Shown piece after piece: positions 961 to 60,457 of a stretch of 64,000 nt of DNA. Source of the stretch: Solirubrobacteraceae bacterium (lineage in GTDB: Bacteria > Actinomycetota > Thermoleophilia > Solirubrobacterales > Solirubrobacteraceae). Position numbers and translations under genes: made by a program. The notes below the pieces were generated by a model, which had not been told where the DNA came from, did not search any database, and saw only the letters and a list, made by a program, of their open reading frames with translations. The stretch's first letter is position 1. Each line of letters starts with the position of its first letter. The stretch lies in the NCBI GenBank assembly GCA_035508515.1, contig DATJMW010000013.1:45772-109771 (forward strand), written 5' to 3'.

Positions 961-3950
<2,990 letters not shown>

Positions 3951-37311: not shown

Positions 37312-38984
37312 GAGAGCACCGCCTCGACGGCCGAGTCGCGGCGCAGCAGCTCGGCGCCCTGCTCGGGCAGCAGCGCCCCGCCCGCGCCCCCGAGGATCCG
37401 CGCGGTCTCGGTGGCGAAGTACCAGCCGCCCGCGAGCAGCTCCTCGACGGGGCCGTCGGCGATCACGCGCCCGTCGGCGAGCAGCACGGCGCGGCGCGCG
37501 CAGGACGCGGCGAACTCCGGGTCGTGCGTCGCGACGATCACGGCCTGTCCGGCGGCGGCTCGGGCGCGCAGCTCGTCTGCGAGCCCGGCCTTCGCGCCGC
37601 GGTCCATCCCCCGCGTCGGCTCGTCCAGCGCGAGCACGGCGGGCGGCTCGCCGTCAGTGACGATCGCGAGCGCGAGGCGCTGGCGCTCGCCGCCGGAGAG
37701 ATCGCGCGGGTGGCGCGCCGCGAGCGCCTCCAGGCCCGCGGCGGCGAGCGCCTGCCGCGAGGCCTCCTCGACGACGCGCTCGCGAACGAAGTAGTCGCCG
37801 GGGTTCTGTAGCAGCAGCGCCACGCGCCCCGCCCGCTCGACCCGGCCGCGCGTCGGCTCCAGCAGGCCCGCGGCGTGTCGCAGCAGCGTCGACTTGCCGG
37901 CGCCGTTGCGGCCCATCAGCGCCACGGTCTCGCCTGCCGCCAGGCGCAGCGAGGCGCCGCGCAGGATCGCGGGCCCCTCGCGCAGCTCATGCCACACCTC
38001 GCGCAGGTCGAGCGCCGCCGGTGCCTCGCCGCGCTTCGGCCACGGCCACGCTCGGCGAGCGGCGGACCGGGGCGCGGAGGTGGCGGGTGACGCGCTCGCG
38101 ACCGGCCCAGGCGCCGCCGGTTCGGACAGGTGCGGGCCAGCCCCCCCGCCGGGCAGCAACCCGTGAGCGCGCAGCTCGGCGCGCGCCTGCCTGACCCCCA
38201 CCGGCGCCGGCTCCAGGCCCGCGAGCGAGAACAGCTTCGCGCCGGGCGTCTGCAACGCCGGCCTGTGCTCGCCGGCCCAGCGCAGGAAGTCGCGCGGGGC
38301 GCCGTCGCAGGCGATGCGCCCGCCGTCGAGGGCGATCACGCGGTCCGCGGCGTTCAGGCAACGCTCGAGGCGATGCTCGGCGAGCACGATCGTCATCTCC
38401 CACTCCTGATTCAGGCGCCGCAGCAGCCCGATCAGCTCGTCGCCGGCGACTGGGTCCAGCTGCGAGGTGGGCTCGTCGAGCAGCAGCAGGCGCGGGCTGC
38501 CGGCGAGCGCGGCGCCGAGCGCCACGCGCTGCTTCTCCCCGCCGGAGAGCTCGTGCGTCGAGCGATCGAGCAGTGCGTCGATGCCGAGCGCGAGCGCCAC
38601 CTCCTCGACGCCGCGCGCGACCGCGGCCCCGGCCCCGCCGCGGCTTTCGAGCGCGAGCGACAGCTCGGCCCGCACCGAGCTGGTGACGAGCTGCGTCTCG
38701 GGGTCCTGGAACAAGGCCCCCGCCAGCGTTCCGAGCTCCGCGGGCCGGTGCTCGCGCGTGTCGAGGCCCGCCAGCTCGACGCGCCCGGCGAAGCGCCCGC
38801 CGTGGAAGTGCGGGACGAGCCCGCAGGCCGCGCCGAGCAACGAGGACTTGCCGCTCCCGGAGAGGCCCGCAAGCAGGCAGAACTCGCCCGGGTGCAGCTC
38901 GAAGCTGACGTCGCTCAGCGCGGGCCGGTCGGCTCCGGGATAGGAGTAGCCGACGCGCTCGAAGCGCAGCAGCGCGGCGCTCAT
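37308..38984 (-). CDS. ECF transporter double ATPase (A-A' fusion)
   Basis: Two Walker A motifs ([16 protein letters not shown]), LSGGEKQR/LSGGERQR, LDEPT twice. Confidence 0.92.
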   Translation of the reverse strand: MSAALLRFERVGYSYPGADRPALSDVSFELHPGEFCLLAGLSGSGKSSLLGAACGLVPHFHGGRFAGRVELAGLDTREHRPAELGTLAGALFQDPETQLVTSSVRAELSLALESRGGAGAAVARGVEEVALALGIDALLDRSTHELSGGEKQRVALGAALAGSPRLLLLDEPTSQLDPVAGDELIGLLRRLNQEWEMTIVLAEHRLERCLNAADRVIALDGGRIACDGAPRDFLRWAGEHRPALQTPGAKLFSLAGLEPAPVGVRQARAELRAHGLLPGGGAGPHLSEPAAPGPVASASPATSAPRSAARRAWPWPKRGEAPAALDLREVWHELREGPAILRGASLRLAAGETVALMGRNGAGKSTLLRHAAGLLEPTRGRVERAGRVALLLQNPGDYFVRERVVEEASRQALAAAGLEALAARHPRDLSGGERQRLALAIVTDGEPPAVLALDEPTRGMDRGAKAGLADELRARAAAGQAVIVATHDPEFAASCARRAVLLADGRVIADGPVEELLAGGWYFATETARILGGAGGALLPEQGAELLRRDSAVEAVLS

Positions 38985-39901
38985 CGCTCGATCCCCCTGC
39001 GGTCGGCGAACGGCAGCAGGATCGCGAGGCACAGCCCCACCCCGAGCACGAGCGTGCCGAGATGCAGCGGCATCGCGATCTGCGGATAGGCATCGAAGCG
39101 CGCGGCCCCCGTGAGGCGCCCGGCGAGCGCAAGCGCGAGCACGGCGGCGGCCGAGGCGCCGAAGGCGAGGTCGTGACGTGAGAGCGGGCGGCGCAGCGAG
39201 CCGCCGCCGCCACGCTCGCGGACGCCCCTCCGATCGCGGCGCATCGCGGCGAAGCCGCGAACCTCGAGCGTCGCGGCGACGTCCATCGCGCGGTCGAGCG
39301 AGCCGCCGACGACGGCGCTCAGCAGCGCTACCCGCGCCCGCGCGCCGCCGGGGGCGCCGCCGGGCCGCGTGCGCTGCGCCTCCGCGAGCCGCTGCGCGTC
39401 GGCGGCGAGCAGCGGGATCATGCGGGTGGCGATCGTGGCCGTCAGCGCCGAGCGAAACGAGAAGCGGCGGAACAGGCGCAGCAGCTCGTCGGGGTCGACG
39501 GCGAGCCCCGCGAGCGTGGTGACGAGGATCAGCAACGCGACCTTCAGGCCGATCACGCTGCCGTAGACGACGGCCTCGACGGTGAGATCGCCCTGCCCGA
39601 AGGGGCCAAGGTCGCCGACGCGGGCGAACACCGTCAGCCCGTCGCGGTCGACGAGCACGTTCACGAGCACGATCGGCACCGCGACGATCAGCGCCGTGCG
39701 CAGGGCGCGCAGCAGCGGGTGGCCGACGCCGGCGCCCGCCCCGGCGCCGAGCACGGCGAGCAGCATCGCGCACAGGATCAGCGGCTGGTAGAGGATCAGC
39801 GCGGCGGATGTCAGCGCGATCGCCCAGACGGCGCCGATGCCGGCGCGGGTGGCGTGCAGCGGGCTGGGCAGACGCCGGTAGAAGAACGAGGAGGAGCCCA
39901 T
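38981..39901 (-). CDS. ECF transporter T component
   Basis: TM helices, RMIPLLAADAQRLAEAQRTR and LEVRGF (XRX motifs). Confidence 0.88.
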   Translation of the reverse strand: MGSSSFFYRRLPSPLHATRAGIGAVWAIALTSAALILYQPLILCAMLLAVLGAGAGAGVGHPLLRALRTALIVAVPIVLVNVLVDRDGLTVFARVGDLGPFGQGDLTVEAVVYGSVIGLKVALLILVTTLAGLAVDPDELLRLFRRFSFRSALTATIATRMIPLLAADAQRLAEAQRTRPGGAPGGARARVALLSAVVGGSLDRAMDVAATLEVRGFAAMRRDRRGVRERGGGGSLRRPLSRHDLAFGASAAAVLALALAGRLTGAARFDAYPQIAMPLHLGTLVLGVGLCLAILLPFADRRGIER

Positions 39902-40860
39902 CAGGCACCGGGCCTCGTCGGCAGCGCCAGCGCGGCGCCGGCTGGCGTCACGGCGACGGCGAAGCGATCGCGCAGCGTCCCCGCGGCGAATGCCCGCGAG
40001 GCGGCATCGACCCCGGCGGCGTCGGTGCCGGTGACGGCCCACAGCGGGACGGACCCGCCGGGCCCCGCGGCGCCACGCGTGGCGGCGATCAGGCCGGAAC
40101 CGGCGGCGAGCGTCTGCGTCACGCGCCCGTCGGCGTCGAGCAGCGCGAGCGAGCCGCCGCCGCGCTGGAAGCGTGCGTACACGCCGTTGGCCCGTGGCCC
40201 TTCGCGCAGCGTCGCGAGCGCCGGTTCGGCGGCGAGCTCATGCCAGGTGCCGACGGCGACGCGCAGCGTCTGCGTCGCCCCGGCCGCCCCGCCGAGCGCG
40301 GAGACCGCAGCGGGGACACCCTGCGCCCGCAGCCGCTTCGTGACGGTGGTGCACGCCTCACCCCCCGCCTGCGCGCATTCGACCCGCACCGGCAGCCGCT
40401 TGCCGCCAAGGCCGTGCAGGAACGGCTCGGGGAAGGAGCCGACGACCGCGGGCACGTCGTCGGTCTGGCTCCAGTCGTGCCGGTCCCACCAGATGCGATC
40501 GCCGGGGTGCACGGTGGTGGTCGCGGCGCCTTCGCTCGCCTCGACGCCGTTGACGTAGTAGAACCAATCCACGGGCGAGCCGCCTTCGTGGCCGCCTTCG
40601 AGGCCGTCGATCCCCTGCACGAAGGCGCCGCCGTAGCGCGTGCTCACCCTGACGTTGCGTCGCAGCAGGCTCATCGCCGTCTCCTGCCCGCGCAGCTTCG
40701 GGGCGCCGGCGGCATCGATCGTGACGGCGCCGAAGTCACGCGTCACGAGCAGTTGCACGCCGCCGGGCGCCTTGCCGGCGCCGAGGCCGCAGCCCGAGAC
40801 GACGGCAGCGAGCGCCGCGAGCGCCCCCGCCAGCAGGCCCTCGCGGCGTCGCGGGCTCAT
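39901..40860 (-). CDS. DUF4430 (transcobalamin-like C-terminal domain) lipoprotein
   Basis: Lipobox AVVSGC, TRYGGAFVQGIDG and DWFYYVNG...GA...GDRIWWD. Confidence 0.8.
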   Translation of the reverse strand: MSPRRREGLLAGALAALAAVVSGCGLGAGKAPGGVQLLVTRDFGAVTIDAAGAPKLRGQETAMSLLRRNVRVSTRYGGAFVQGIDGLEGGHEGGSPVDWFYYVNGVEASEGAATTTVHPGDRIWWDRHDWSQTDDVPAVVGSFPEPFLHGLGGKRLPVRVECAQAGGEACTTVTKRLRAQGVPAAVSALGGAAGATQTLRVAVGTWHELAAEPALATLREGPRANGVYARFQRGGGSLALLDADGRVTQTLAAGSGLIAATRGAAGPGGSVPLWAVTGTDAAGVDAASRAFAAGTLRDRFAVAVTPAGAALALPTRPGA

Positions 40861-40887: not shown

Positions 40888-42072
40888 TCAGCGGACAAAG
40901 AACACCGTCCTCGTGCTCCCGCGCGCGAGCGTCGTACGGTTCCCGAGCGTGTCGGTCGCCTGGATGTCGAGCACGTAGCGCCCCGGCGCCAGCGCCGCCG
41001 GCAGCAGGTAGGAGAAGCTGGGGGTGCTGCCCACGCTGAAGAAGCTGCCGCCGCCACAGCGGGTGCGCTTGAAGCGCTCCGTGACGCCGTCGTAGGCGGA
41101 GCAGCGGCCGCGGTAGGAACGCCGCAGCTCGATGCTGACTCCGGCGACCGACGCGTGCGTCGAAACGGTGCCCCGCAGCAGCCGGGGGGCGTCTTTGCGC
41201 GAGTAGACGTGCCCTTCGGTGACGCTGCCGGCGCGCGCCACGACGGCGTAGGAGCCTTTGTAGGGCGCGGTCGTGGGCGAGGAGGGCCCGCCGGCGGCAG
41301 CGCCCGTCGTGGCCGCGCCGCACTGCCCGTCGTTGCCGTTGTGCACGCAGACCGTCGTCTCGCTGCGCACCGAGTCGGGGGCGGTCACCTGAAGCTGCTG
41401 GCTGCCGGTTCCCGCCAGCGTCAGGGTGGCGTGGCCGGCGGCGTCGGTCGTCGCCCGGGCGCCGCCGCCGGCGACTGTAGCGCCGGCCGCGGGCGAGGGT
41501 GCGCCGGAAGCGCTCGCGTAGGAGGTCACGGTGACGGTGAACGGCTTGCCGGCTTCCGCGACGGCGGGGGCTTCGATGCCGAGCGGGTTCGGCGCGAGCG
41601 GGCAGGGGTTCGGTTCTTCTTCGCTGAAGCATTCCGGGAAGTACAGGACGCTCTCGCCGCTGCTGAGTTCGCCTTCGCAGATGCCCACGGAGGACGGCTT
41701 GTTGTCGAGCCAGTAGACCCAGAAGAAGTTCTCAGGCGCGCCGAATTCGAATGCGAGCCGTTCGCCCAGGATCGTTTCGACCGAGTAGCCGTGGAGGCTT
41801 TCGAACCATTCGCCGCCCCAGTTGCCGGAGGTCGCGAGCTCGAGCGCGCCCGCGGCGGTCGCGCCGGGGCAGCTGTGCGCGTTGTTGCCGTCCTTGACGA
41901 CGGGCGTGTTGGTGGTCGTGACGGTCGTCGGCGCGAGCAGCGTGTGGCTCGCCCCCTCGACCCGTACCGTCACCGTCGCGGGGGCAGCGGCGTGCGCGGT
42001 TGCAGCGAGCACGAGCCCCGCCAGGAGGAGCGCAGGGACCAGAAACTTCGGGACACGACGAGAACTGAACAT
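40888..42072 (-). CDS. Secreted protein with DUF4430-like domain, Ig-like domain and basic C-terminal module
   Basis: Signal peptide ending AHA, VTVRVEG, YSVETILG, FWVYWLDN...GESVLYF. First gene after the riboswitch; start 42072 or 42090. Confidence 0.7.
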   Translation of the reverse strand: MFSSRRVPKFLVPALLLAGLVLAATAHAAAPATVTVRVEGASHTLLAPTTVTTTNTPVVKDGNNAHSCPGATAAGALELATSGNWGGEWFESLHGYSVETILGERLAFEFGAPENFFWVYWLDNKPSSVGICEGELSSGESVLYFPECFSEEEPNPCPLAPNPLGIEAPAVAEAGKPFTVTVTSYASASGAPSPAAGATVAGGGARATTDAAGHATLTLAGTGSQQLQVTAPDSVRSETTVCVHNGNDGQCGAATTGAAAGGPSSPTTAPYKGSYAVVARAGSVTEGHVYSRKDAPRLLRGTVSTHASVAGVSIELRRSYRGRCSAYDGVTERFKRTRCGGGSFFSVGSTPSFSYLLPAALAPGRYVLDIQATDTLGNRTTLARGSTRTVFFVR

Positions 42073-42114
42073 GAGCCAACCCCTTTCCACGAGGGCTTGC
42101 GGGCTTTCGGCCGG

Positions 42115-42290
42115 AGGCGGGTCTCCTGGCTCCCGGGCCTACCGTCCCGCGCCTTCCCAAGCCGCGTGGGCGGTCTTAGTGGCTGCGCGCTCAGCGCGCT
42201 TGCGGTCGGCATCCCCGGTCACAGTGGCGGGTCCGCGTCGGATTCGCACCGACTTCCCTCGACCACCGACCGTTGAACGGCTGAATCGTA
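42115..42290 (-). ncRNA. Cobalamin (B12) riboswitch
   Basis: Minus strand reads AGGGAAGTCGGTGCGAATCCGACGCGGACCCGCCACTGTGA...GCCACT...GGGAAGG...AGCCAGGAGACC, the canonical B12-box motifs, upstream of an ECF operon. Confidence 0.95.
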
Positions 42291-43009: not shown

Positions 43010-43645
43010 ATGCCCCTTGTCCCGATGGTGGTCGAGCAGAGCGCGCGCGGCGAGCGCTCGTTCGACATCTACTCCCGCCTGCTGAACGAGCGGATCGTCT
43101 TCATCGGCACGCCTGTCGACGATCAGGTCGCGAACCTGGTCGTGGCACAGCTCCTGCACCTGGAGAGCGAGGACCCCGAGAAGGACATCTCGCTGTACGT
43201 GAACTCCCCCGGCGGCGTCGTCTACTCGGGCCTTGCGATCTACGATACGATGCAGTTCGTCAAGCCGGACGTGCAGACGATCTGCTTCGGCGTGGCGATG
43301 AGCATGGGCTCGCTGCTGCTGGCGGGCGGCGCCCCCGGCAAGCGGATGGCGCTGCCGAACAGCCGCATCCTGATCCACCAGCCGTCGGGGGGCTTTCAGG
43401 GACAGGCGGCCGACATCGAGATCCACGCCAAGGAGACGCTTCAGCTGCGGCGGCACATCGACGAGATCTACGCGCGGCACACGGCCCAGCCGATCGAGCG
43501 CGTCCACGACGACATGGACCGCGACCGCTACTTCACGGCACAGGAGGCGCTTGAGTACGGGCTGATCGACCGCGTGATCTCCTCACACGAGCTGACGCGC
43601 GTGCCGACGGGCTTCGCGGGGCGCTCGACGGGAGAGGCGGACTGA
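43010..43645 (+). CDS. clpP: ATP-dependent Clp protease proteolytic subunit
   Basis: [26 protein letters not shown] (Ser), LIHQP (His), DRDRY (Asp). Confidence 0.96.
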
Positions 43646-45300: not shown

Positions 45301-46479
45301 CTACAGCCCTGGCGGATGGCGCACGGACCATCGGGCCCACGTGGGGATGTGATCCAGAACCCGCCAGCGCGGGCCGCCTTCGCCCGCGTTCGGACCGGTG
45401 TCGGTGCCGTTGCGGCTCGTGTCGAGCCGCAGCCCGGCGATCGTCATGAACACGTGGGCGGTCGGCGCCGTCGTGGCGTAGATCGTCACCCATCGGCCCG
45501 GCCCGGGCGCGCCCCATCCGACGTAGTCCTGCGCGAGCGGATTCTGCTTGAGGATTTCCTGGATGGGGCGGATTCCCGCTCGGTAGAGCACGTAGTTGAC
45601 GGTGCTGGAGCAATCCTCTTCCAGCGCCCCGCGCGGGTCGGGATGGCCACCCGGGCCGTAAGGGAGCTGTTGCAGCTCGTTGCCGGCGACCACCATCGCC
45701 TGGACGACCGCCGGCGCTTGGGCGGGCACCAGCGCAAGATGGCCATCGTGGGGGGCAAGCGTCGCGCGGGGGCCGGCCAGGAAGCGCACCGGCGTCACGG
45801 TTTCGGCCTGTAGGCGCAGGTCCGGCCGCAGCAGCCCGATCGCGCCCACCGGGGCGTCCGCGGGGAGCGGCAGCCCCGAGCTGCCGGACAGCGTCGAGCC
45901 GCGATACCTCGCGGCCCACCGCAGCACCTCGTCGACGTACCAGCCCGCGTGGTTGTAGGCGAACAGGGCGTGCCTGTAGTCACGCGGCGCTCCGGAGGCC
46001 AGCAGGTAGTTGGCGGCGCCGAAGATCGCATCCGCGGCGTCCCAGCGGTCGGCCCTGCCGTCCCCGTCGCCGTCCACACCGTACGCCGACCACGTCGCCG
46101 AGACGAACTGCATCGGCCCACCCGCGCCGGCTCCGTTGGTGGCGCCCTCGCGAGCGCAGGAGGGATCGGGGTCGCGTCCGTGGTCGCACTCGACCCGGCC
46201 GATCGCCGCGAGCACCGCCCAGTCCAGGCCATAGCGCCGCGCCGCCCGCTCGTAGAGGTCCAGGTAGCGCGCGGGGATCTCCTTGCGCGCGAGGGCTGAA
46301 GGCGCGTCACCCCGGTCCGGCTCCTCGCCGGCGCCTTCCTGAAGCGCGACGCCGGTGATCGCGGCGATCGTAGCCAGCGCCAGGAACACGCACAGCGCGA
46401 TTACCGACCCGCCAAGCGCCAGCCGGCGAGCGCCGCGGGGACGCGCTGCCGGGGCTCCAGCGAGCGCACCCGCACTCAC
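45301..46479 (-). CDS. Bifunctional peptidoglycan hydrolase (SLT + NlpC/P60-like), CwlT/TcpG analogue
   Basis: TM anchor, LAAIGRVECDHG and GPMQFVSATW and FAYNHAGWYV (SLT). EDCSSTVNYVL and HVFMTIAG (Cys/His). Confidence 0.8.
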   Translation of the reverse strand: MSAGALAGAPAARPRGARRLALGGSVIALCVFLALATIAAITGVALQEGAGEEPDRGDAPSALARKEIPARYLDLYERAARRYGLDWAVLAAIGRVECDHGRDPDPSCAREGATNGAGAGGPMQFVSATWSAYGVDGDGDGRADRWDAADAIFGAANYLLASGAPRDYRHALFAYNHAGWYVDEVLRWAARYRGSTLSGSSGLPLPADAPVGAIGLLRPDLRLQAETVTPVRFLAGPRATLAPHDGHLALVPAQAPAVVQAMVVAGNELQQLPYGPGGHPDPRGALEEDCSSTVNYVLYRAGIRPIQEILKQNPLAQDYVGWGAPGPGRWVTIYATTAPTAHVFMTIAGLRLDTSRNGTDTGPNAGEGGPRWRVLDHIPTWARWSVRHPPGL

Positions 46480-49037
46480 GGCGTGTCCCTGCCCAGCTGG
46501 CGTTTGCGCCCGGCGGCGACCTCGTGCGCGTCCCTCATGACGCTCGACTCCGACCGCGAGGCGACAGCGGGACGCCCGGTCGGGCGGCGACGTCCACGAT
46601 CCGTCGCGGCGTCGCGGGGTCGATCGAGCTGGGGCACATCCGAGCCGGGGACGATCTCCCGGCGCCGTGCGAGCTCGCGGTCGATCTGCTGCCGCGCCAC
46701 GAGCGCCCTGATCGGATCGAGCTGAAGGAACTCGCGTCGTCCGTAGCCCGCGATCCCGGCCATCGCCGGGTAGCTACGTCTACGCGGCTCGTCTCCCGCG
46801 CGCCCGCCGCCAAGCGGCGGAAGCCTCGCCTGGGCATCGAGGAAACGCGCGTAGGCCTCGCCGCGCCCGCCTCCCGGCCCCCGCCCCCTCCGCTGAGATT
46901 CGCGGCCGCCGGGGTCGTCGGCCGACTCCGCTGCCACTCGCTCGGCTCGGCTGGCGAGCAGCGCGGCCCGGCGCACGTTGCCGACGCTCACGGCGCGCTC
47001 ACGCTGCGCGGCGATCAGTCGCAATCGCGACGAGAGAGCGCCCGGAGACGGCTCGCGGCTGCGCACCCGCGCGTCCGCTCTCGCCGTCGCGGGTGGCGCG
47101 GCCGGCGAGGGCAGCGCGGCCGGGTCGGCTGGCGCGGCCGGGTCGCGCCCAGCCGGAAGCACCGGCGCTTCAGGCGCGCCCCGGTCGCCGCGAGGCCCGA
47201 AGCCGCCGTGTCGGCCATGGCTCGACCGGGGCCACGAGGCCTCGCCGCCGTGGCGCCCCGGCTCGGGCTGCTTGCGATCGGACCGCTCGCGGGCGCCGCG
47301 CACTCGCTCGCGCAGGTCGCGCAGGTCGCCGGGTCGACGCGGCATTCTCCAGCCGTCCGTCGCCGTGCGGTCCCCGCCGATCAGCTGCAAGAGCTGATGG
47401 CGGCGCGCGAAGGTGCCCCACCAGAAGGCGGACATCAGCAGCCAGCGCGTCCACCATCCGACCGCCTGCAGCCCGCCGAGGATCGTGACGATCGCGAGCA
47501 GCACCCCGAGCAGGAAGGCGAACAGGAGCTTTGAGACGACGGCGCCCAGCAGCTGGGCGGCCCATCTGCGAAACGCCGCTCGGCCAGGCTCGCCCAGCGC
47601 GGGCGCGAGCGCAACCGCGGGGGCCAGCAGCAGGTACAGGAGGCTGAAGATCGCGGCGCCGAGCAGCCTCAGCGCGACGAAGCCCAGCAGGAGCAGCAGC
47701 CCGAGCACTCCTGCGGCGATAAGCAGCAAGCCGCCGACCCGTGGCCAGGTGCCGTGGTTGGCGCGGAACTCCGCCGGCGCGGCGGCGCTGCCATGGCAGT
47801 CGGTCGCGTCTTCGCTGCGGCAGATCGCACGCAGCAGCGAGCCTGGATCGTTGATCGCGTTGCGGGCGGGCCCGTTCGGCGGCAGCGCCAGGAAGACTTC
47901 GCCGTTCGTCCGCGCCGCCCGCAGCAGGCGCGCGCTTCGTTCGAGCGCGTCGGCGTCGGCGCCGTGCCGGGCGCAGGCCTGCCCCGCGCAACCGGCTTCG
48001 CGCTGCTCGGAGGCCGCGAGCCGCAGGGCCGCGGCTCGCAGCCCGGGGTCCAGCCGTGCGGGGTCCCGGCACCAGGAGACGTCGCCGAACTCCAGGTAGC
48101 ACCAGGGGATCTCAATCGTGGTCGCGAAGACGGCGCCGAGGCTGTCCGCGAGCGCGTTGCCCGGCGAGGCGGGGCTGCCATGTGCGGTCACGGCGAGCGT
48201 TCCGAGGCTTGCGCCGTTCGCCCATTCCCCCAGGACGCCCACGGTCCCGGCGGGATCAATCGTCACCCAGGTGCAGGCGCCCGTCATCGCCAGCACCAGC
48301 AGAGCCTGCGTCAGGCTCTCGGTCACGCGACGACGGATCAGCCCGTGGTAGGCGCAGAGGATCGCCGCGAGCGGTAGCACCACCGCCAGCCAGGGGAGCG
48401 TGATCGAGGACTGCATCGTGCGCAGCGAATCCCCCACTCCGCCGCGCAGCGTGCCGCCGTCGAGCAGGTCGATCGTGAAGCACCACTCGAGCACCACGAT
48501 GAGCGCGTGCATCGCCCATACCAGCGCCATCCAGAGCGGCGCGACGAACAGGTCCTGCACGATCGCCAGCAGCCCCGACGAGCTGAGCCCCAGCAGCCCG
48601 GTGTCGATGTGTACGTCGAGCCCGAAGTTCCCAGTCGGCGCCGCAGCCGCGATGAAGCCGGAGGTTTCGCAGTTGCGCCGGCCCTGTCCCGCCAGGACCG
48701 AGCCACCCGGCGCGCCGGAGCACAGGGGGCTACCGAGACCGTTGCGAACCAGCGGGTCCGCTTCCGCCACGGGCGATCCTCCCGCCTGCGGTTCATCGCC
48801 GCCTTCGTCGGCGGTGGGAGTGGAGCCCAGCAGAGGCGGGCTCGCCGGGGAGCGCGAGGCGTGCCTCCCGGCGGAGCTGACCGCGGTGGCGTCGGCGCGC
48901 CGCGCAGCCGACGCAGTCCGTGCAGCGCCCGGCTGCCCGCGGGCTTCGCCGACCGGCCACTTGCTGCCGACGCCCGAACCGACGGCCGCCGCCACCAACA
49001 CGCAGGCACCGACACGAGCACACGGCGGGGCGCTCAT
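46476..49037 (-). CDS. Large polytopic membrane protein, ConG/TcpH (VirB6)-like
   Basis: About 7-8 hydrophobic segments, a Cys-containing loop and a long charged C-tail. Follows VirB4 directly. C-terminal part of ORF 46476..51377. Confidence 0.7.
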   Translation of the reverse strand: MSAPPCARVGACVLVAAAVGSGVGSKWPVGEARGQPGAARTASAARRADATAVSSAGRHASRSPASPPLLGSTPTADEGGDEPQAGGSPVAEADPLVRNGLGSPLCSGAPGGSVLAGQGRRNCETSGFIAAAAPTGNFGLDVHIDTGLLGLSSSGLLAIVQDLFVAPLWMALVWAMHALIVVLEWCFTIDLLDGGTLRGGVGDSLRTMQSSITLPWLAVVLPLAAILCAYHGLIRRRVTESLTQALLVLAMTGACTWVTIDPAGTVGVLGEWANGASLGTLAVTAHGSPASPGNALADSLGAVFATTIEIPWCYLEFGDVSWCRDPARLDPGLRAAALRLAASEQREAGCAGQACARHGADADALERSARLLRAARTNGEVFLALPPNGPARNAINDPGSLLRAICRSEDATDCHGSAAAPAEFRANHGTWPRVGGLLLIAAGVLGLLLLLGFVALRLLGAAIFSLLYLLLAPAVALAPALGEPGRAAFRRWAAQLLGAVVSKLLFAFLLGVLLAIVTILGGLQAVGWWTRWLLMSAFWWGTFARRHQLLQLIGGDRTATDGWRMPRRPGDLRDLRERVRGARERSDRKQPEPGRHGGEASWPRSSHGRHGGFGPRGDRGAPEAPVLPAGRDPAAPADPAALPSPAAPPATARADARVRSREPSPGALSSRLRLIAAQRERAVSVGNVRRAALLASRAERVAAESADDPGGRESQRRGRGPGGGRGEAYARFLDAQARLPPLGGGRAGDEPRRRSYPAMAGIAGYGRREFLQLDPIRALVARQQIDRELARRREIVPGSDVPQLDRPRDAATDRGRRRPTGRPAVASRSESSVMRDAHEVAAGRKRQLGRDTP

Positions 49038-57565: not shown

Positions 57566-57685
57566 GACGGGTGCATGCACCCGTCGGGATCGGGCCGCAT
57601 GCGGCCCGATCTGCCGGCGGCGCATGCGCCGCCGGAGGGGGGCGCACATGTGCGCCCCCCTGCCGGCCCCGCATGCGGGGCCGGC
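57566..57685. repeat. Array of five contiguous perfect palindromes centred on CATG
   Basis: 57566-57585, 57588-57611, 57614-57635, 57636-57661, 57662-57685; each checked base by base. Confidence 0.95.
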
Positions 57686-57744
57686 TTCCTTGAATGAGTG
57701 GTATTTGGCTCTAGAGAGCCAGTTCAGGCATCACCAGAAGGTAC

Positions 57745-57773
57745 TTGCGCATGCAATCACCCCGCGCTATACT
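57745..57773 (+). promoter_or_regulatory. Putative sigma-70 promoter of lon
   Basis: TTGCGC-N17-TATACT, 37 bp upstream of ATG 57811. Confidence 0.65.
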
Positions 57774-57810
57774 AACTACACTTTCGTAAGCTCATATGGA
57801 GCAATAACTG

Positions 57811-60130
<2,320 letters not shown>

Positions 60131-60150
<20 letters not shown>

Positions 60151-60457
60151 CCGCTGCAAGCCCGTCCCCGAGGAGGTCCGCCAGACCGCGGACCTCCTCG
60201 AGCGGCGCTGGCAGCTCTCCATCATCTACGCCGCCCTCTCCGGCGCGCTTCGCTTCAACGAGTTCGCCGAGGCCGTCGCCGGCATCTCCCCCCGGATGCT
60301 CTCCGAGCGCCTGCGCGACCTCGAGGGCGCCGGGCTCGTCGAGCGCACCGTCCTGCCCACCAGCCCTCCCACCGTCGAGTACCGGCTCACCGAGCGGGGG
60401 CGCAAGCTGCGGCCCATCATCGAGGCCATGCGCGCCTACGCGGGTGAGCCCGTCTAA
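60131..60457 (+). CDS. HxlR family winged-helix regulator
   Basis: RWQLSII, RFNEF, ISPRMLSERLRDLE..GLVER, PPTVEYRLT..G. Confidence 0.88.

Follow-up and report, generated by a model that had tools for sequence, protein, structure and literature searches.

A stretch of DNA of 64,000 nucleotides (hereafter the window) raises the question of why five mismatch-free palindromes, each centred on CATG, should abut one another at 57566-57685, between lon and a divergent gene for a protein with two transmembrane segments (2TM). An earlier note on this sequence had offered three answers, namely a hairpin RNA or leader serving the neighbouring membrane protein, a cruciform, protein-binding or methylation array, and the captured end of a linear replicon. 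The features of the locus are as follows.

54808-55764, plus strand: brkB/yihY-family gene (context).
55872-56813, plus strand: secreted lipase gene (context).
57030..57467, minus strand: divergent 145-aa 2TM protein gene, with two predicted transmembrane segments.
57566..57685, no strand: whole array, BIME-like, of the Solirubrobacterales CGCATGCG-hairpin family; ortholog at L009:2259-2377.
57566..57585, no strand: unit 1, GACGGGTG-CATG-CACCCGTC, 20 bp.
57588..57611, no strand: unit 2, GATCGGGCCG-CATG-CGGCCCGATC, 24 bp.
57614..57635, no strand: unit 3, CCGGCGGCG-CATG-CGCCGCCGG, 22 bp.
57636..57661, no strand: unit 4, AGGGGGGCGCA-CATG-TGCGCCCCCCT, 26 bp, the ACATGT-core variant.
57662..57685, no strand: unit 5, GCCGGCCCCG-CATG-CGGGGCCGGC, 24 bp.
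57706..57721, plus strand: inverted repeat TGGCTCT-AG-AGAGCCA, between the array and the lon promoter.
57745..57773, plus strand: putative lon promoter TTGCGC-N17-TATACT, conserved in 17 lon loci.
57811..60150, plus strand: lon, 779 aa, ATP-dependent protease La, with Pfam LON_substr_bdg, AAA and Lon_C.

The positions and lengths of the palindromes given in the earlier note were reproduced exactly, as were the spacers of 2, 2, 0 and 0 nt, the centre-to-centre distances of 24, 25, 24 and 25 bp, and the cores, which are GCATGC in four units and ACATGT in one. Its statement that the arms share no sequence holds for the outer arms, which vary, and fails for the two innermost stem pairs, which are common to the units, so that the constant core is 8 bp (CGCATGCG or CACATGTG) and not 6. 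Unit 1 has an atypical T-A pair beside GCATGC, exact copies of unit 3 are also found in the arrays at L118 and L135, and unit 5 is the unit most widely kept among relatives. As DNA, the hairpins are predicted at -8 to -15 kcal/mol each (-8 kcal/mol for unit 1 and -12.1 kcal/mol for unit 2), and the RNA fold of the array gives five hairpins at -121 kcal/mol with z = -8. A coding role was rejected by inspection, because the 23-25 bp spacing of the units disrupts every reading frame.

The placement of the array was also as described. It lies in a low-GC islet (GC 0.61 over 57001-58000 vs 0.72 for the whole window), 98 nt from the ATG of the 2TM gene at 57467, where about 100 bp had been noted, and its end is 59 nt before the -35 box TTGCGC at 57745, where about 60 bp had been noted. 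This -35 box sits within a 12-bp palindrome, TTGCGCATGCAA, and the conserved leader ACTTTCGTAAGCTCATATGGAGC follows the putative promoter at 57780-57802. The inverted repeat TGGCTCT-AG-AGAGCCA is recognisable upstream of lon in nearly all close relatives read, with the array present or not, and is probably an operator. A consensus scan for promoters and terminators over 56800-58200 flagged nothing; it misses the lon promoter because TTGCGC matches TTGACA at 3/6 positions only.

The array far exceeds chance expectation. The window contains nine perfect palindromes with arms of at least 8, five of which are in the array, and six with arms of at least 10, compared with a mean of 0.59 in 200 first-order Markov simulations of the window. 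Within 130 bp, five palindromes were observed, and the 200 simulations gave one at most. The array is also real and no assembly artefact, because the same sequence is found in independent assemblies and the same kind of array in many long-read, chromosome-level metagenome-assembled genomes (MAGs). A Logan contig from run X1 covers 57000-57791 with zero differences, and the ENA MEGAHIT contig L204 is identical to the window in the array and its flanks. Tightly packed palindromes superficially resemble actinomycete telomeres and can arise as chimeric artefacts, and the earlier note had proposed a captured telomere-like end of a linear replicon. The probability of either origin is negligible, and we regard both as refuted by the identical independent assemblies, by an orthologous array with compensated substitutions and by the location of the arrays. 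The window array is contig-internal with genes on both sides, and others are flanked by housekeeping genes deep within chromosomes of Mb scale; one of them is 1.80 Mb into OY970221.1, a record of 2.97 Mb. A BLAST search of the locus against PLSDB plasmids gave no match, and exact-protein look-ups of the window Lon and of P0002 returned no record. Arrays of this kind break short-read assemblies, as is seen at several loci and in run X2, where contigs end.

A pattern scan of species-representative genomes for runs of at least three adjacent CATG-centred palindromes, a check that the earlier note had proposed, recovered at least 48 further arrays of 3-7 units in 45 loci beyond the window copy. 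All of these belong to Solirubrobacterales or to unresolved Actinomycetota MAGs; among the matches listed, arrays in other taxa numbered 0 among 71 loci, and none of 66 pattern matches in viral contigs contained even two adjacent perfect CATG palindromes. The window array is a single member of a family of tandem palindrome arrays that is dispersed and specific to this lineage. As the other arrays stand at unrelated loci, it is REP/BIME-like and not a lon-specific device. The claim that it is neither CRISPR nor a REP-type repeat was right about CRISPR, whose repeats and spacers are lacking, and is not supported in its second part, since the dispersed extragenic family is REP/BIME-like in organisation. 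The literature on Solirubrobacterales palindromes, CGCATGCG, tandem perfect palindromes and actinobacterial REP elements does not describe the family, which is previously undescribed as far as this literature was searched.

The anatomy of the family was compiled from 205 units. The unit length is 24 bp in 138 and 22 bp in 46 of them (range 20-28 bp), and the centres are spaced at 23-25 bp with gaps of 0-2 nt. The core is GCATGC in 189 units, ACATGT in 15 and GTATAC in 1, and C stands at position 4 from the centre in 96%; the conserved apical core is 8 bp, CGCATGCG and sometimes CACATGTG. The outer stem, about 7-8 pairs per unit, varies in sequence and keeps its Watson-Crick complementarity. 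As a single strand (RNA or ssDNA, either strand), a unit folds to an 8-11-bp stem with a CATG/CAUG tetraloop. Few units are identical, the commonest sequence occurring four times among the 205, and single units are rare. Several genomes contain at least 2-3 arrays, and the density of about one array per 60-180 kb in the DNA examined suggests tens rather than hundreds of copies per genome. The units have no strand polarity, so that an alternation of orientation is undefinable, and the inter-unit spacers show no sense-strand bias (T in 8 and A in 5 of the single-nucleotide spacers). No conserved motif was found at the base of the stem in family units. A "head" motif, GCATGC-N3-8-AAAAGCTGATG, abuts arrays at 7/45 loci, is found nowhere else in 1.46 Mb and is absent from the window. 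The L156 array is bracketed by inverted AAAAAGCTGATG...CATCAGCTTTTT flanks, which most arrays, including that of the window, lack. No target-site duplications were seen at the arrays.

What is conserved within a unit is seen most clearly at L009, a soil relative with an orthologous five-unit array upstream of lon, in the same unit order and with the ACATGT unit again in fourth place. Pair changes were counted with each unit anchored at its centre, because a MAFFT alignment of the two arrays gapped asymmetrically. The arrays differ at 14/57 stem pairs, every one of them on both arms, with zero mismatches; eight of the 14 changes are transversions. Two of the changed pairs are in unit 1, whose ortholog is AGACAGGCGCATGCGCCTGTCT, four are in unit 2 and one is in unit 3, all compensated, and the changes affect 1/30 apical pairs vs 13/27 basal pairs. 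The arm covariation that the earlier note had suggested looking for is complete, and its reading that structure and spacing are maintained while arm sequence is not agrees with what these sequences indicate. Across the family, pairing around every CATG is bimodal, with a background mode of 4-5/12, 150 sites at 12/12, 53 sites at 11/12 and almost none at 9-10/12. Only one G-T pair is present among about 2400 stem pairs. Units with a mutated, non-palindromic loop (CTTG, CGTG, CAAG) still have perfect stems, and the unit centre therefore behaves as a loop. The symmetry is probably kept by selection for pairing, and intrastrand template switching during replication may help, as a change in one arm would be copied onto the other. 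At quasipalindromes, mutation by template switching is well established (PMC7202029).

Homologues of the window Lon are 91-100% identical in Solirubrobacteraceae. In close relatives with 94-98% identical Lon, the array is decayed or deleted, so lon expression does not depend on it. In L203 a single perfect unit stands at the place of unit 5, and L201 and L202 have just the right half of unit 5. As only such single-unit and half-unit remnants are left in the closer relatives, the array is dispensable. The unit-5 remnant of L202 is a statistically supported 15/15 match to GCGGGGCCGGCTTCC; further remnants, from units 3-4 in L202 and from unit 1 in L206, were recognised by eye but lack statistical support. 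Intact, single-unit and eroded states coexist at this one orthologous locus. In most relatives brkB is directly followed by lon, and the gene content of the brkB-lon interval beside the array varies.

The same relatives bear on the proposal that the array is a locus-specific regulatory RNA, either a five-hairpin ncRNA or the 5' leader of the 2TM gene, with the function of an antitoxin or protein sponge for the 2TM protein. The array is close upstream of the 2TM ATG, both are found together in the window and in L009, and a conserved loop on stems of differing sequence has a formal parallel in CsrB/RsmZ-type sponge RNAs. A tblastn search, however, found a 2TM homologue only at L009, and none is present beside the other 47 arrays, whose neighbours are unrelated housekeeping genes. 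L206 has a 2TM homologue and only a decayed remnant of the array, and L203 has one unit and no 2TM gene. The 2TM protein diverges fast (36% identity to its L009 homologue vs 81% for the lipase), its Pfam matches are all below threshold, and no nuclease domain was found among them. Unlike type III antitoxin repeats, the units differ mutually and face the gene divergently. An Rfam scan of the window and four related loci at gathering threshold found no family for the array, and a permissive scan around it gave only chance-level matches below that threshold. The regulatory-RNA proposal is largely refuted by the distribution of the arrays and appears highly improbable, and the 2TM gene is without a specific link to them. 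The sole Rfam match in the window is a cobalamin riboswitch, located elsewhere than the array.

With genes called by a crude GC3-based caller, the arrays are extragenic and most start 0-41 nt after a stop codon, and 30/43 of the flanking 3' gene ends scored are within 41 nt of an array. Where both flanking genes run in the same direction, the intergenic array is nearer to the stop codon upstream than to the start codon downstream in 15/19 cases (sign test, p ~0.01). The neighbours are diverse, unrelated housekeeping genes, with no gene family enriched. The arrays of the window and L009 adjoin no gene's 3' end. As they lie between the divergent 2TM gene and lon, the typical context of the family is missing at this locus. 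No T-run follows the arrays, and the terminator scan over 56800-58200 was also empty; the arrays are therefore not canonical intrinsic terminators. A look for RNA runs listed for the window locus and for L093 returned none.

By analogy with known elements, we tentatively favour, at a probability of roughly 0.45, the explanation that the arrays are BIME-like, strand-symmetric multi-hairpin elements at transcription-unit ends, which might act as a terminator, an insulator or an exonuclease block. Several highly stable hairpins in succession, lacking U-tracts, would make RNA polymerase pause or terminate and would be a barrier to 3'-to-5' exonucleases. The same function has been proposed for REP/BIME elements, and also for the GC-rich stems lacking poly-U at transcript ends of high-GC actinobacteria. 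Term-seq in Streptomyces avermitilis showed that most transcript 3' ends are preceded by GC-rich palindromic stems that lack poly-U (PMC8780764). The window array, upstream of the lon promoter, would insulate this promoter from transcription arriving from the brkB-lipase side and would equally stop leftward transcription leaving the lon control region. The apical loop is invariant, which suggests that a putative factor might recognise the hairpin tip. The near-absence of G-T pairs is unexpected for a hairpin formed by one RNA strand and points to a constraint at the DNA level or on both strands. A bolder proposal, which we consider unlikely, is that the arrays are the footprint of an undescribed hairpin-recognition system. 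A putative protein or enzyme would recognise DNA or RNA hairpins by their invariant CG-CATG-CG tip, multivalently in arrays, and replication-coupled or dedicated conversion would keep the lower stems complementary; such a class would be independent of REP/RAYT and private to Solirubrobacterales.

The hairpins might also be of no benefit to the host. As selfish or neutral REP-like elements, they would be spread, now or once, in the form of ssDNA hairpins by a putative hairpin-specific enzyme, for which a RAYT/IS200-like HUH transposase or another structure-specific recombinase is a candidate, and would persist harmlessly after stop codons. The dispersed, lineage-restricted occurrence with several arrays per genome is in line with this, as are the same-locus arrays that are intact, eroded or missing across close relatives and the variable gene content between brkB and lon. 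Hairpin-recognising DNA enzymes read their sites through a conserved loop and apical stem above a variable lower stem, the virtual absence of G-T pairs fits DNA over RNA pairing, and the head motif at 7 loci points to common descent of whole elements. The surroundings fit less well, as no transposase or Y1_Tnp domain was found in the 63 ORFs flanking arrays, no clean empty sites were seen, in addition to the missing target-site duplications, and the density is low. The diverse units with few identical copies are unlike a REPIN population with its master sequence (PMC3116915). In addition, the arrays of the window and L009 were inherited vertically as a block, and perfection kept through 14 compensated changes requires ongoing selection or conversion beyond a past insertion. 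We consider this account possible but doubtful.

Another candidate is an element acting as DNA, the second proposal of the earlier note, which would fit both the conservation of the apical core and the almost complete lack of G-T pairs. Here the arrays would extrude as cruciforms or bind a dimeric protein at CGCATGCG, and would act on supercoiling, replication or chromosome organisation; candidate binders are a nucleoid protein, a gyrase-like enzyme and a CATG methyltransferase or reader. Among known repeats, E. coli BIMEs are binding sites for gyrase and IHF, and the intergenic repeats of Caulobacter have methylation sites at their centres. The units are palindromic through the centre, with a conserved, self-complementary 8-bp core, Watson-Crick pairing only, and neither strand polarity in the units nor sense-strand bias in the spacers; the window array also has divergent promoters on its two sides, and negative supercoiling between them would favour extrusion. 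On the other hand, a dimer binding dsDNA would not need complementary, variable outer arms, and perfect stems around mutated, non-palindromic centres argue for a stem-loop and not for a symmetric duplex site. Cruciform extrusion is at its lower limit with arms of 10-12 bp around a GC-rich centre, and most arrays are downstream of genes, where positive supercoiling disfavours it. Outside the array, the window contains 114 CATG sites vs 110 expected and 16 GCATGC sites vs 16.1 expected. Neither motif is depleted or enriched there, and no bias linked to restriction-modification or methylation is apparent. We consider such a role at the DNA level rather unlikely.

Extragenic palindromic repeats are known mainly from Proteobacteria, and their origin and function are debated. 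The present family comes from a poorly studied, abundant order of soil actinobacteria and is of unusually clean design, with a fixed 24-bp unit, an invariant tip and stems that are free in sequence and mismatch-free, which sets the tip, as the part that is read, apart from the stem, which need only stay paired. With this family, nature provides a test of whether such arrays are RNA-end structures, DNA hairpin sites for an enzyme, or both. It supplies dozens of natural compensatory-change experiments and shows how perfect palindromy is maintained or lost. In MAG annotation, the arrays could pass for CRISPR-like or artefactual sequence.

Several known systems share part of this design. The regular periodicity of short, partly palindromic units resembles CRISPR; however, CRISPR consists of identical direct repeats with unique spacers of similar length, whereas here the units differ and the gaps are 0-2 nt, and no cas genes were found in the neighbourhoods examined. 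Integron attC sites also place structure over sequence and are recognised as folded single-stranded hairpins, but they are imperfect palindromes of 57-141 bp with R/L boxes and extrahelical bases, with gene cassettes between them and near intI, none of which is seen here. The serial hairpins with a conserved loop and variable stems have the layout of CsrB/RsmZ-type sponge RNAs for multivalent, loop-specific binding. Each of those is encoded by a separate sRNA gene that has its own promoter and terminator, and its loops are GGA and its stems imperfect, with G-U pairs, unlike the present arrays, which lie in the 3' flanks of many genes and have Watson-Crick-perfect stems. The array copies are also not near-identical, as those of MITEs would be.

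The REP/BIME elements of Enterobacteria are closer. They are short, GC-rich extragenic palindromes that form stable hairpins and are clustered in head-to-tail arrays, dispersed mostly just after stops or between convergent genes, lineage-specific and dispensable at individual loci. Short GC-rich stem-loop palindromes and their clustering into arrays are both found here. REPs, however, are imperfect palindromes of about 35-40 nt with conserved sequence, as compared with perfect units of 22-24 bp, and carry, at the base of the stem, a conserved head of the GTAG type, with a loop that varies, whereas our units have a conserved loop and apical stem and a variable basal stem, with only the apical CGCATGCG conserved. 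BIME units alternate in orientation with defined linkers, and the units here are symmetric with gaps of 0-2 nt. The copy number is apparently much lower than for REP/BIME, and no RAYT gene was among the 63 flanking ORFs; RAYT genes are single-copy. The REPIN/RAYT system likewise comprises lineage-restricted, dispersed extragenic hairpin repeats that are vertically inherited (PMC3116915, PMC3337134), and the conservation of a hairpin tip would be accounted for if a domesticated HUH transposase recognised the DNA hairpin. A REPIN is a doublet, made up of two REPs in inverted orientation and a spacer, and REPINs form populations around a master sequence, in contrast to the 3-7 differing units here, which abut without such a spacer and are not near-identical copies.

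The arrays are also similar to the "I-shaped" transcript-end hairpins and tandem terminators of high-GC Actinobacteria, with GC-rich perfect stems at gene 3' ends and no poly-U tail. A canonical intrinsic terminator combines a hairpin with a U-tract, of which only the hairpins are present. Most arrays of the family, by the crude gene calls, are at the predicted 3' end of a transcription unit, and the window copy is not. In more distant relatives, lon is followed by a single perfect 26-38-bp palindrome. Ordinary terminators are such single, idiosyncratic hairpins, which neither share a loop nor keep to a 24-bp unit size nor form arrays of 3-7, whereas the common 8-bp apex marks the arrays described here as a family of common design or descent.

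The earlier note had described five perfect palindromes of 20, 24, 22, 26 and 24 bp at positions 57566-57685, with spacers of 2, 2, 0 and 0 nt, centres 24, 25, 24 and 25 bp apart, and the core GCATGC in four units and ACATGT in one; all of this was confirmed. The window originates from a wetland metagenome, has a G+C content of 71.7%, and holds nine perfect palindromes with arms of at least 8, five of which lie within the array. For arms of at least 10, six palindromes are observed against 0.59 expected from 200 Markov simulations of the window, none of which placed more than one within 130 bp. As RNA, the array region is predicted to form a row of five hairpins, each closed by a loop of 4 nt (-121 kcal/mol, z = -8), and as DNA each unit is predicted to fold at -8 to -15 kcal/mol; no Rfam family matched the array. 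An assembly artefact is ruled out by a Logan contig from metagenome run X1, which spans the array without difference, and by the identical array on the ENA MEGAHIT contig L204. Around units 2-3 (57561-57662), extra contigs from four metagenomes (X1-X4) align at an identity of at least 85% with small indels and raise the local depth to about 25 versus 7.6 for the host contig. They presumably represent units of other arrays in other community members.

The array lies upstream of lon, whose product has homologs of 91-100% identity in MAGs annotated as Solirubrobacteraceae or Solirubrobacterales.

Features of the lon locus in the window
54808-55764, +, brkB/yihY
55872-56813, +, lipase gene
57030-57467, -, 2TM gene (145 aa, two predicted transmembrane segments)
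57566-57685, array, between the 2TM gene and the inverted repeat
57706-57721, conserved inverted repeat TGGCTCT-AG-AGAGCCA
57745-57773, conserved promoter TTGCGC-N17-TATACT with leader
57811-60150, +, lon

An equivalent lon-upstream array was found in only one of 80 metagenome lon loci, L009, which shows the same order of lipase gene, 2TM gene, array and lon. Its five perfect units are ordered as in the window, with the ACATGT unit fourth. With each unit anchored at its own centre, the window and L009 arrays differ at 14 of 57 stem pairs (8 of the 14 by transversion), and all 14 are altered on both arms, so pairing is kept. The differences fall in 1/30 pairs at positions 1-6 from the centre versus 13/27 at positions 7-12. 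The apical 8 nt are kept in sequence and the basal stem only in pairing. In closer relatives, remnants occur at the position of unit 5: one perfect unit, TAGCGCCCGCATGCGGGCGCTA, in L203 (93% Lon identity), a right half-unit in L201 (98%), and in L202 (94%) a right arm and flank matching at 15/15 with the left arm lost. L206 (94%) retains a 2TM homolog and no intact unit, and in most other relatives brkB is followed directly by lon, separated from it by no more than the TTTGGCTCT box and the promoter. On these comparisons the array is old at this locus: some lineages have preserved it in perfect form, others have let it erode or have lost it, and neither lon nor the 2TM gene requires it. Individual arrays are dispensable and do decay.

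The brkB-lon interval immediately upstream of the lon-proximal unit is a hotspot at which close relatives vary in gene content. This interval contains the lipase and 2TM genes in the window (55765-57565) and L009, the lipase gene and three unknown ORFs in L201 (876-3500), an N6/N4 DNA methyltransferase gene in L203 (646-2424), only the 2TM homolog in L206 (556-1500), and nothing in L202 and most others. Ahead of the unit, L201 and L203 have in common some 150 nt of conserved non-coding DNA, for which Rfam gave no match. The 2TM protein is changing very rapidly (36% identity between the window and L009, versus 81% for the adjacent lipase; copies at L009:1737-2192 and L206:804-1313, both on the minus strand), and its gene has a low GC3 of 0.77. 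SLATT_3, DUF6232 and holin models match it only below threshold; it is possibly a membrane protein of the conflict-system or holin-like kind.

The lon control region (57706-57721 and 57745-57802) is strongly kept across relatives (L001-L030, L201-L206) and consists of the TTTGGCTCT..AGCCA inverted-repeat box, TTGCGC-N17-TATACT and the leader ACTTTCGTAAGCTCATATGGAGC; the -35 box in the window lies inside the palindrome TTGCGCATGCAA. The box resembles an operator of some regulator and does not seem to match the HspR HAIR consensus. An HxlR-family regulator gene (60131-60457, +) shares 20 nt with the 3' end of lon, an arrangement retained in L201-L206. In more distant relatives, a single perfect GCGC-centred palindrome of 26-38 bp, GGAGGTCCGCC-GCGC-GGCGGACCTCC or a variant, follows lon (L017:2522-2547, L019:4397-4422, L048:3585-3616, L064:4793-4830 with a compensated C-to-G change, L077:2763-2794). 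It resembles a normal terminator hairpin, with perfect symmetry in addition.

Further upstream, a cluster resembling type IV secretion or conjugation genes (45301-53433) includes genes for an SLT transglycosylase (45301-46479), a large membrane protein, a VirB4-like AAA_10 ATPase (49034-51475) and, weakly, a TcpC-like protein (52486-53433). GC3 is 0.78-0.90 over 42.6-54.8 kb versus 0.93-0.97 in the remaining window, a pattern suggestive of an integrated element lying a few kb from the array on its upstream side. A cobalamin riboswitch (Rfam RF00174, 72 bits; 42099-42282, -) precedes a 400-aa ORF without a Pfam match (40888-42090), and the riboswitch's strand also carries, further downstream, a CbiQ cobalt-transport gene (38981-40042).

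A scan of 185,579 species-representative genomes for three SGCATGCS cores 12-22 nt apart, a pattern that biases the sample against single units and arrays with other cores, returned at least 120 loci. Among those listed, 45 hold 48 arrays of at least three abutting perfect CATG-centred palindromes; of these 45 loci, 41 carry the label Solirubrobacterales or Solirubrobacteraceae and the other four are assigned only to Actinomycetota or Actinomycetes. The matches listed also include 71 loci from other taxa, all of them either ordinary tandem repeats or matches by chance, and none with an array. The same pattern gave 66 matches and no array in IMG/VR. Many hosts are long-read, chromosome-level MAGs, and several genomes carry at least two arrays. 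The window array belongs to a family of tandem hairpin units that is lineage-specific, dispersed and extragenic. In an Acidimicrobiia MAG we noted a different repeat (L088:2225-2470), a 28-nt tandem of GCATGC-centred imperfect hairpins with G-T pairs, a useful contrast to the mismatch-free units of Solirubrobacterales.

Anatomy was compiled from 205 units across the family.

Anatomy of the units
Unit length: 24 bp in 138/205, 22 bp in 46/205
Centre spacing: 23-25 bp
Gap between units: 0 nt in 82, 1 nt in 34, 2 nt in 13
Units per array: 3-7
Core: GCATGC 189, ACATGT 15, GTATAC 1 (biased by the search for three units per array)
Position 4 from the centre: C in 96% of units, hence a conserved apex CGCATGCG
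Positions 7-12: variable, 5' arm G-rich

The number of paired positions (of 12) around each CATG in 1.46 Mb is bimodal, with a background mode at 4-5, a second mode of 150 sites at 12/12 and 53 at 11/12 (the 22-bp units), and 9-10 nearly empty. By our count, some 2400 stem pairs contain about eight internal mismatches, only one of them G-T. Among 4-nt-loop hairpins with 10/10 stem pairs in 421 kb, 148 have a CATG loop and 11 another loop, where simulation expects one. Next to arrays there are a few units whose centre has mutated and is no longer palindromic (CTTG, CGTG, CAAG), yet their stems are still perfect; the centre thus acts as a loop, and what stays paired is the stem.

Arrays lie mostly just after stop codons. 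With a crude GC3-based caller, whose gene calls are approximate, 30 of 43 flanking 3' gene ends fall within 41 nt of an array, many at 0-10 nt. Flanking genes were called co-directional for 21 arrays, convergent for eight and divergent for four; the window and L009 had been miscalled because the caller missed the 2TM gene, and correction gives 19 co-directional and six divergent. In 15 of the 19 co-directional cases the array is closer to the upstream stop than to the downstream start (sign test p ~0.01, conservative because starts were called as far upstream as possible). Neighbours are housekeeping genes of diverse kinds, among them genes for aminoacyl-tRNA synthetases, acyl-CoA dehydrogenases, ClpC/ClpB, superoxide dismutase, histidine biosynthesis and TetR regulators. 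Three adjoining genes encode Clp ATPases of the ClpC/ClpB type, and the window carries clpP (43010-43645, +) as well as lon, which may be a small-number coincidence. No transposase was found among the flanking genes, and no T-tract after the arrays. At seven loci a "head", GCATGC-N3-8-AAAAGCTGATG-N4-5, abuts the array, preceded by a half-unit and sometimes duplicated (L084:158-185, L086:4356-4386, L128:5204-5229, L141:1721-1813, L155:1235-1264, L156:3023-3052 and 3248-3277, L196:7459-7520); in L156 one copy lies at each end of the array, the two in inverted orientation. No further copy occurs in 1.46 Mb, the window included. The head may mark the end of an element, form a small AT-rich hairpin or supply a U-tract on the opposite strand.

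For function, the reading with most support is a BIME-like element placed where transcription units end. Very stable hairpins in a row, with no U-tract, would make RNA polymerase pause or stop and would shield transcript 3' ends. According to Term-seq in Streptomyces avermitilis, an actinobacterium of high GC, most transcript ends are preceded by palindromic GC-rich stems that lack poly-U (PMC8780764). Lying between divergent genes, the window copy is atypical; there the same hairpins would shield the conserved lon promoter against transcription entering from the brkB-lipase side. Two earlier proposals fail on where the arrays occur: their distribution contradicts an RNA tied to the adjacent membrane protein, and their internal chromosomal positions contradict a telomere relic.

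The earlier suggestion of a DNA-level element is a rival to the BIME-like reading. A role of the RNA from one strand leaves unexplained both the near absence of G-T pairs, which RNA would tolerate as G-U, and the invariant, self-complementary tip. These two features suggest a two-strand function, recognition of a DNA hairpin by some factor, or efficient arm-to-arm conversion. Conversion would proceed by intrastrand template switching, a known mechanism at quasipalindromes (PMC7202029). Conversion alone cannot account for everything, given the decayed units in relatives.

The array had also been described as not a REP-type repeat. This is wrong in spirit, as the organisation is REP/BIME-like, although two features that define REPs, conservation of the unit's sequence and a head of the GTAG type, are lacking, and no RAYT gene turned up among 63 ORFs flanking arrays. 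We therefore regard the family as working like BIMEs without belonging to them. Literature searches found no published description of Solirubrobacterales arrays or of CGCATGCG-centred palindrome arrays. The known kind is the extragenic palindromic repeat array, from which the present family is distinguished by perfect units, a constant tip, a variable stem and the lack of spacers.
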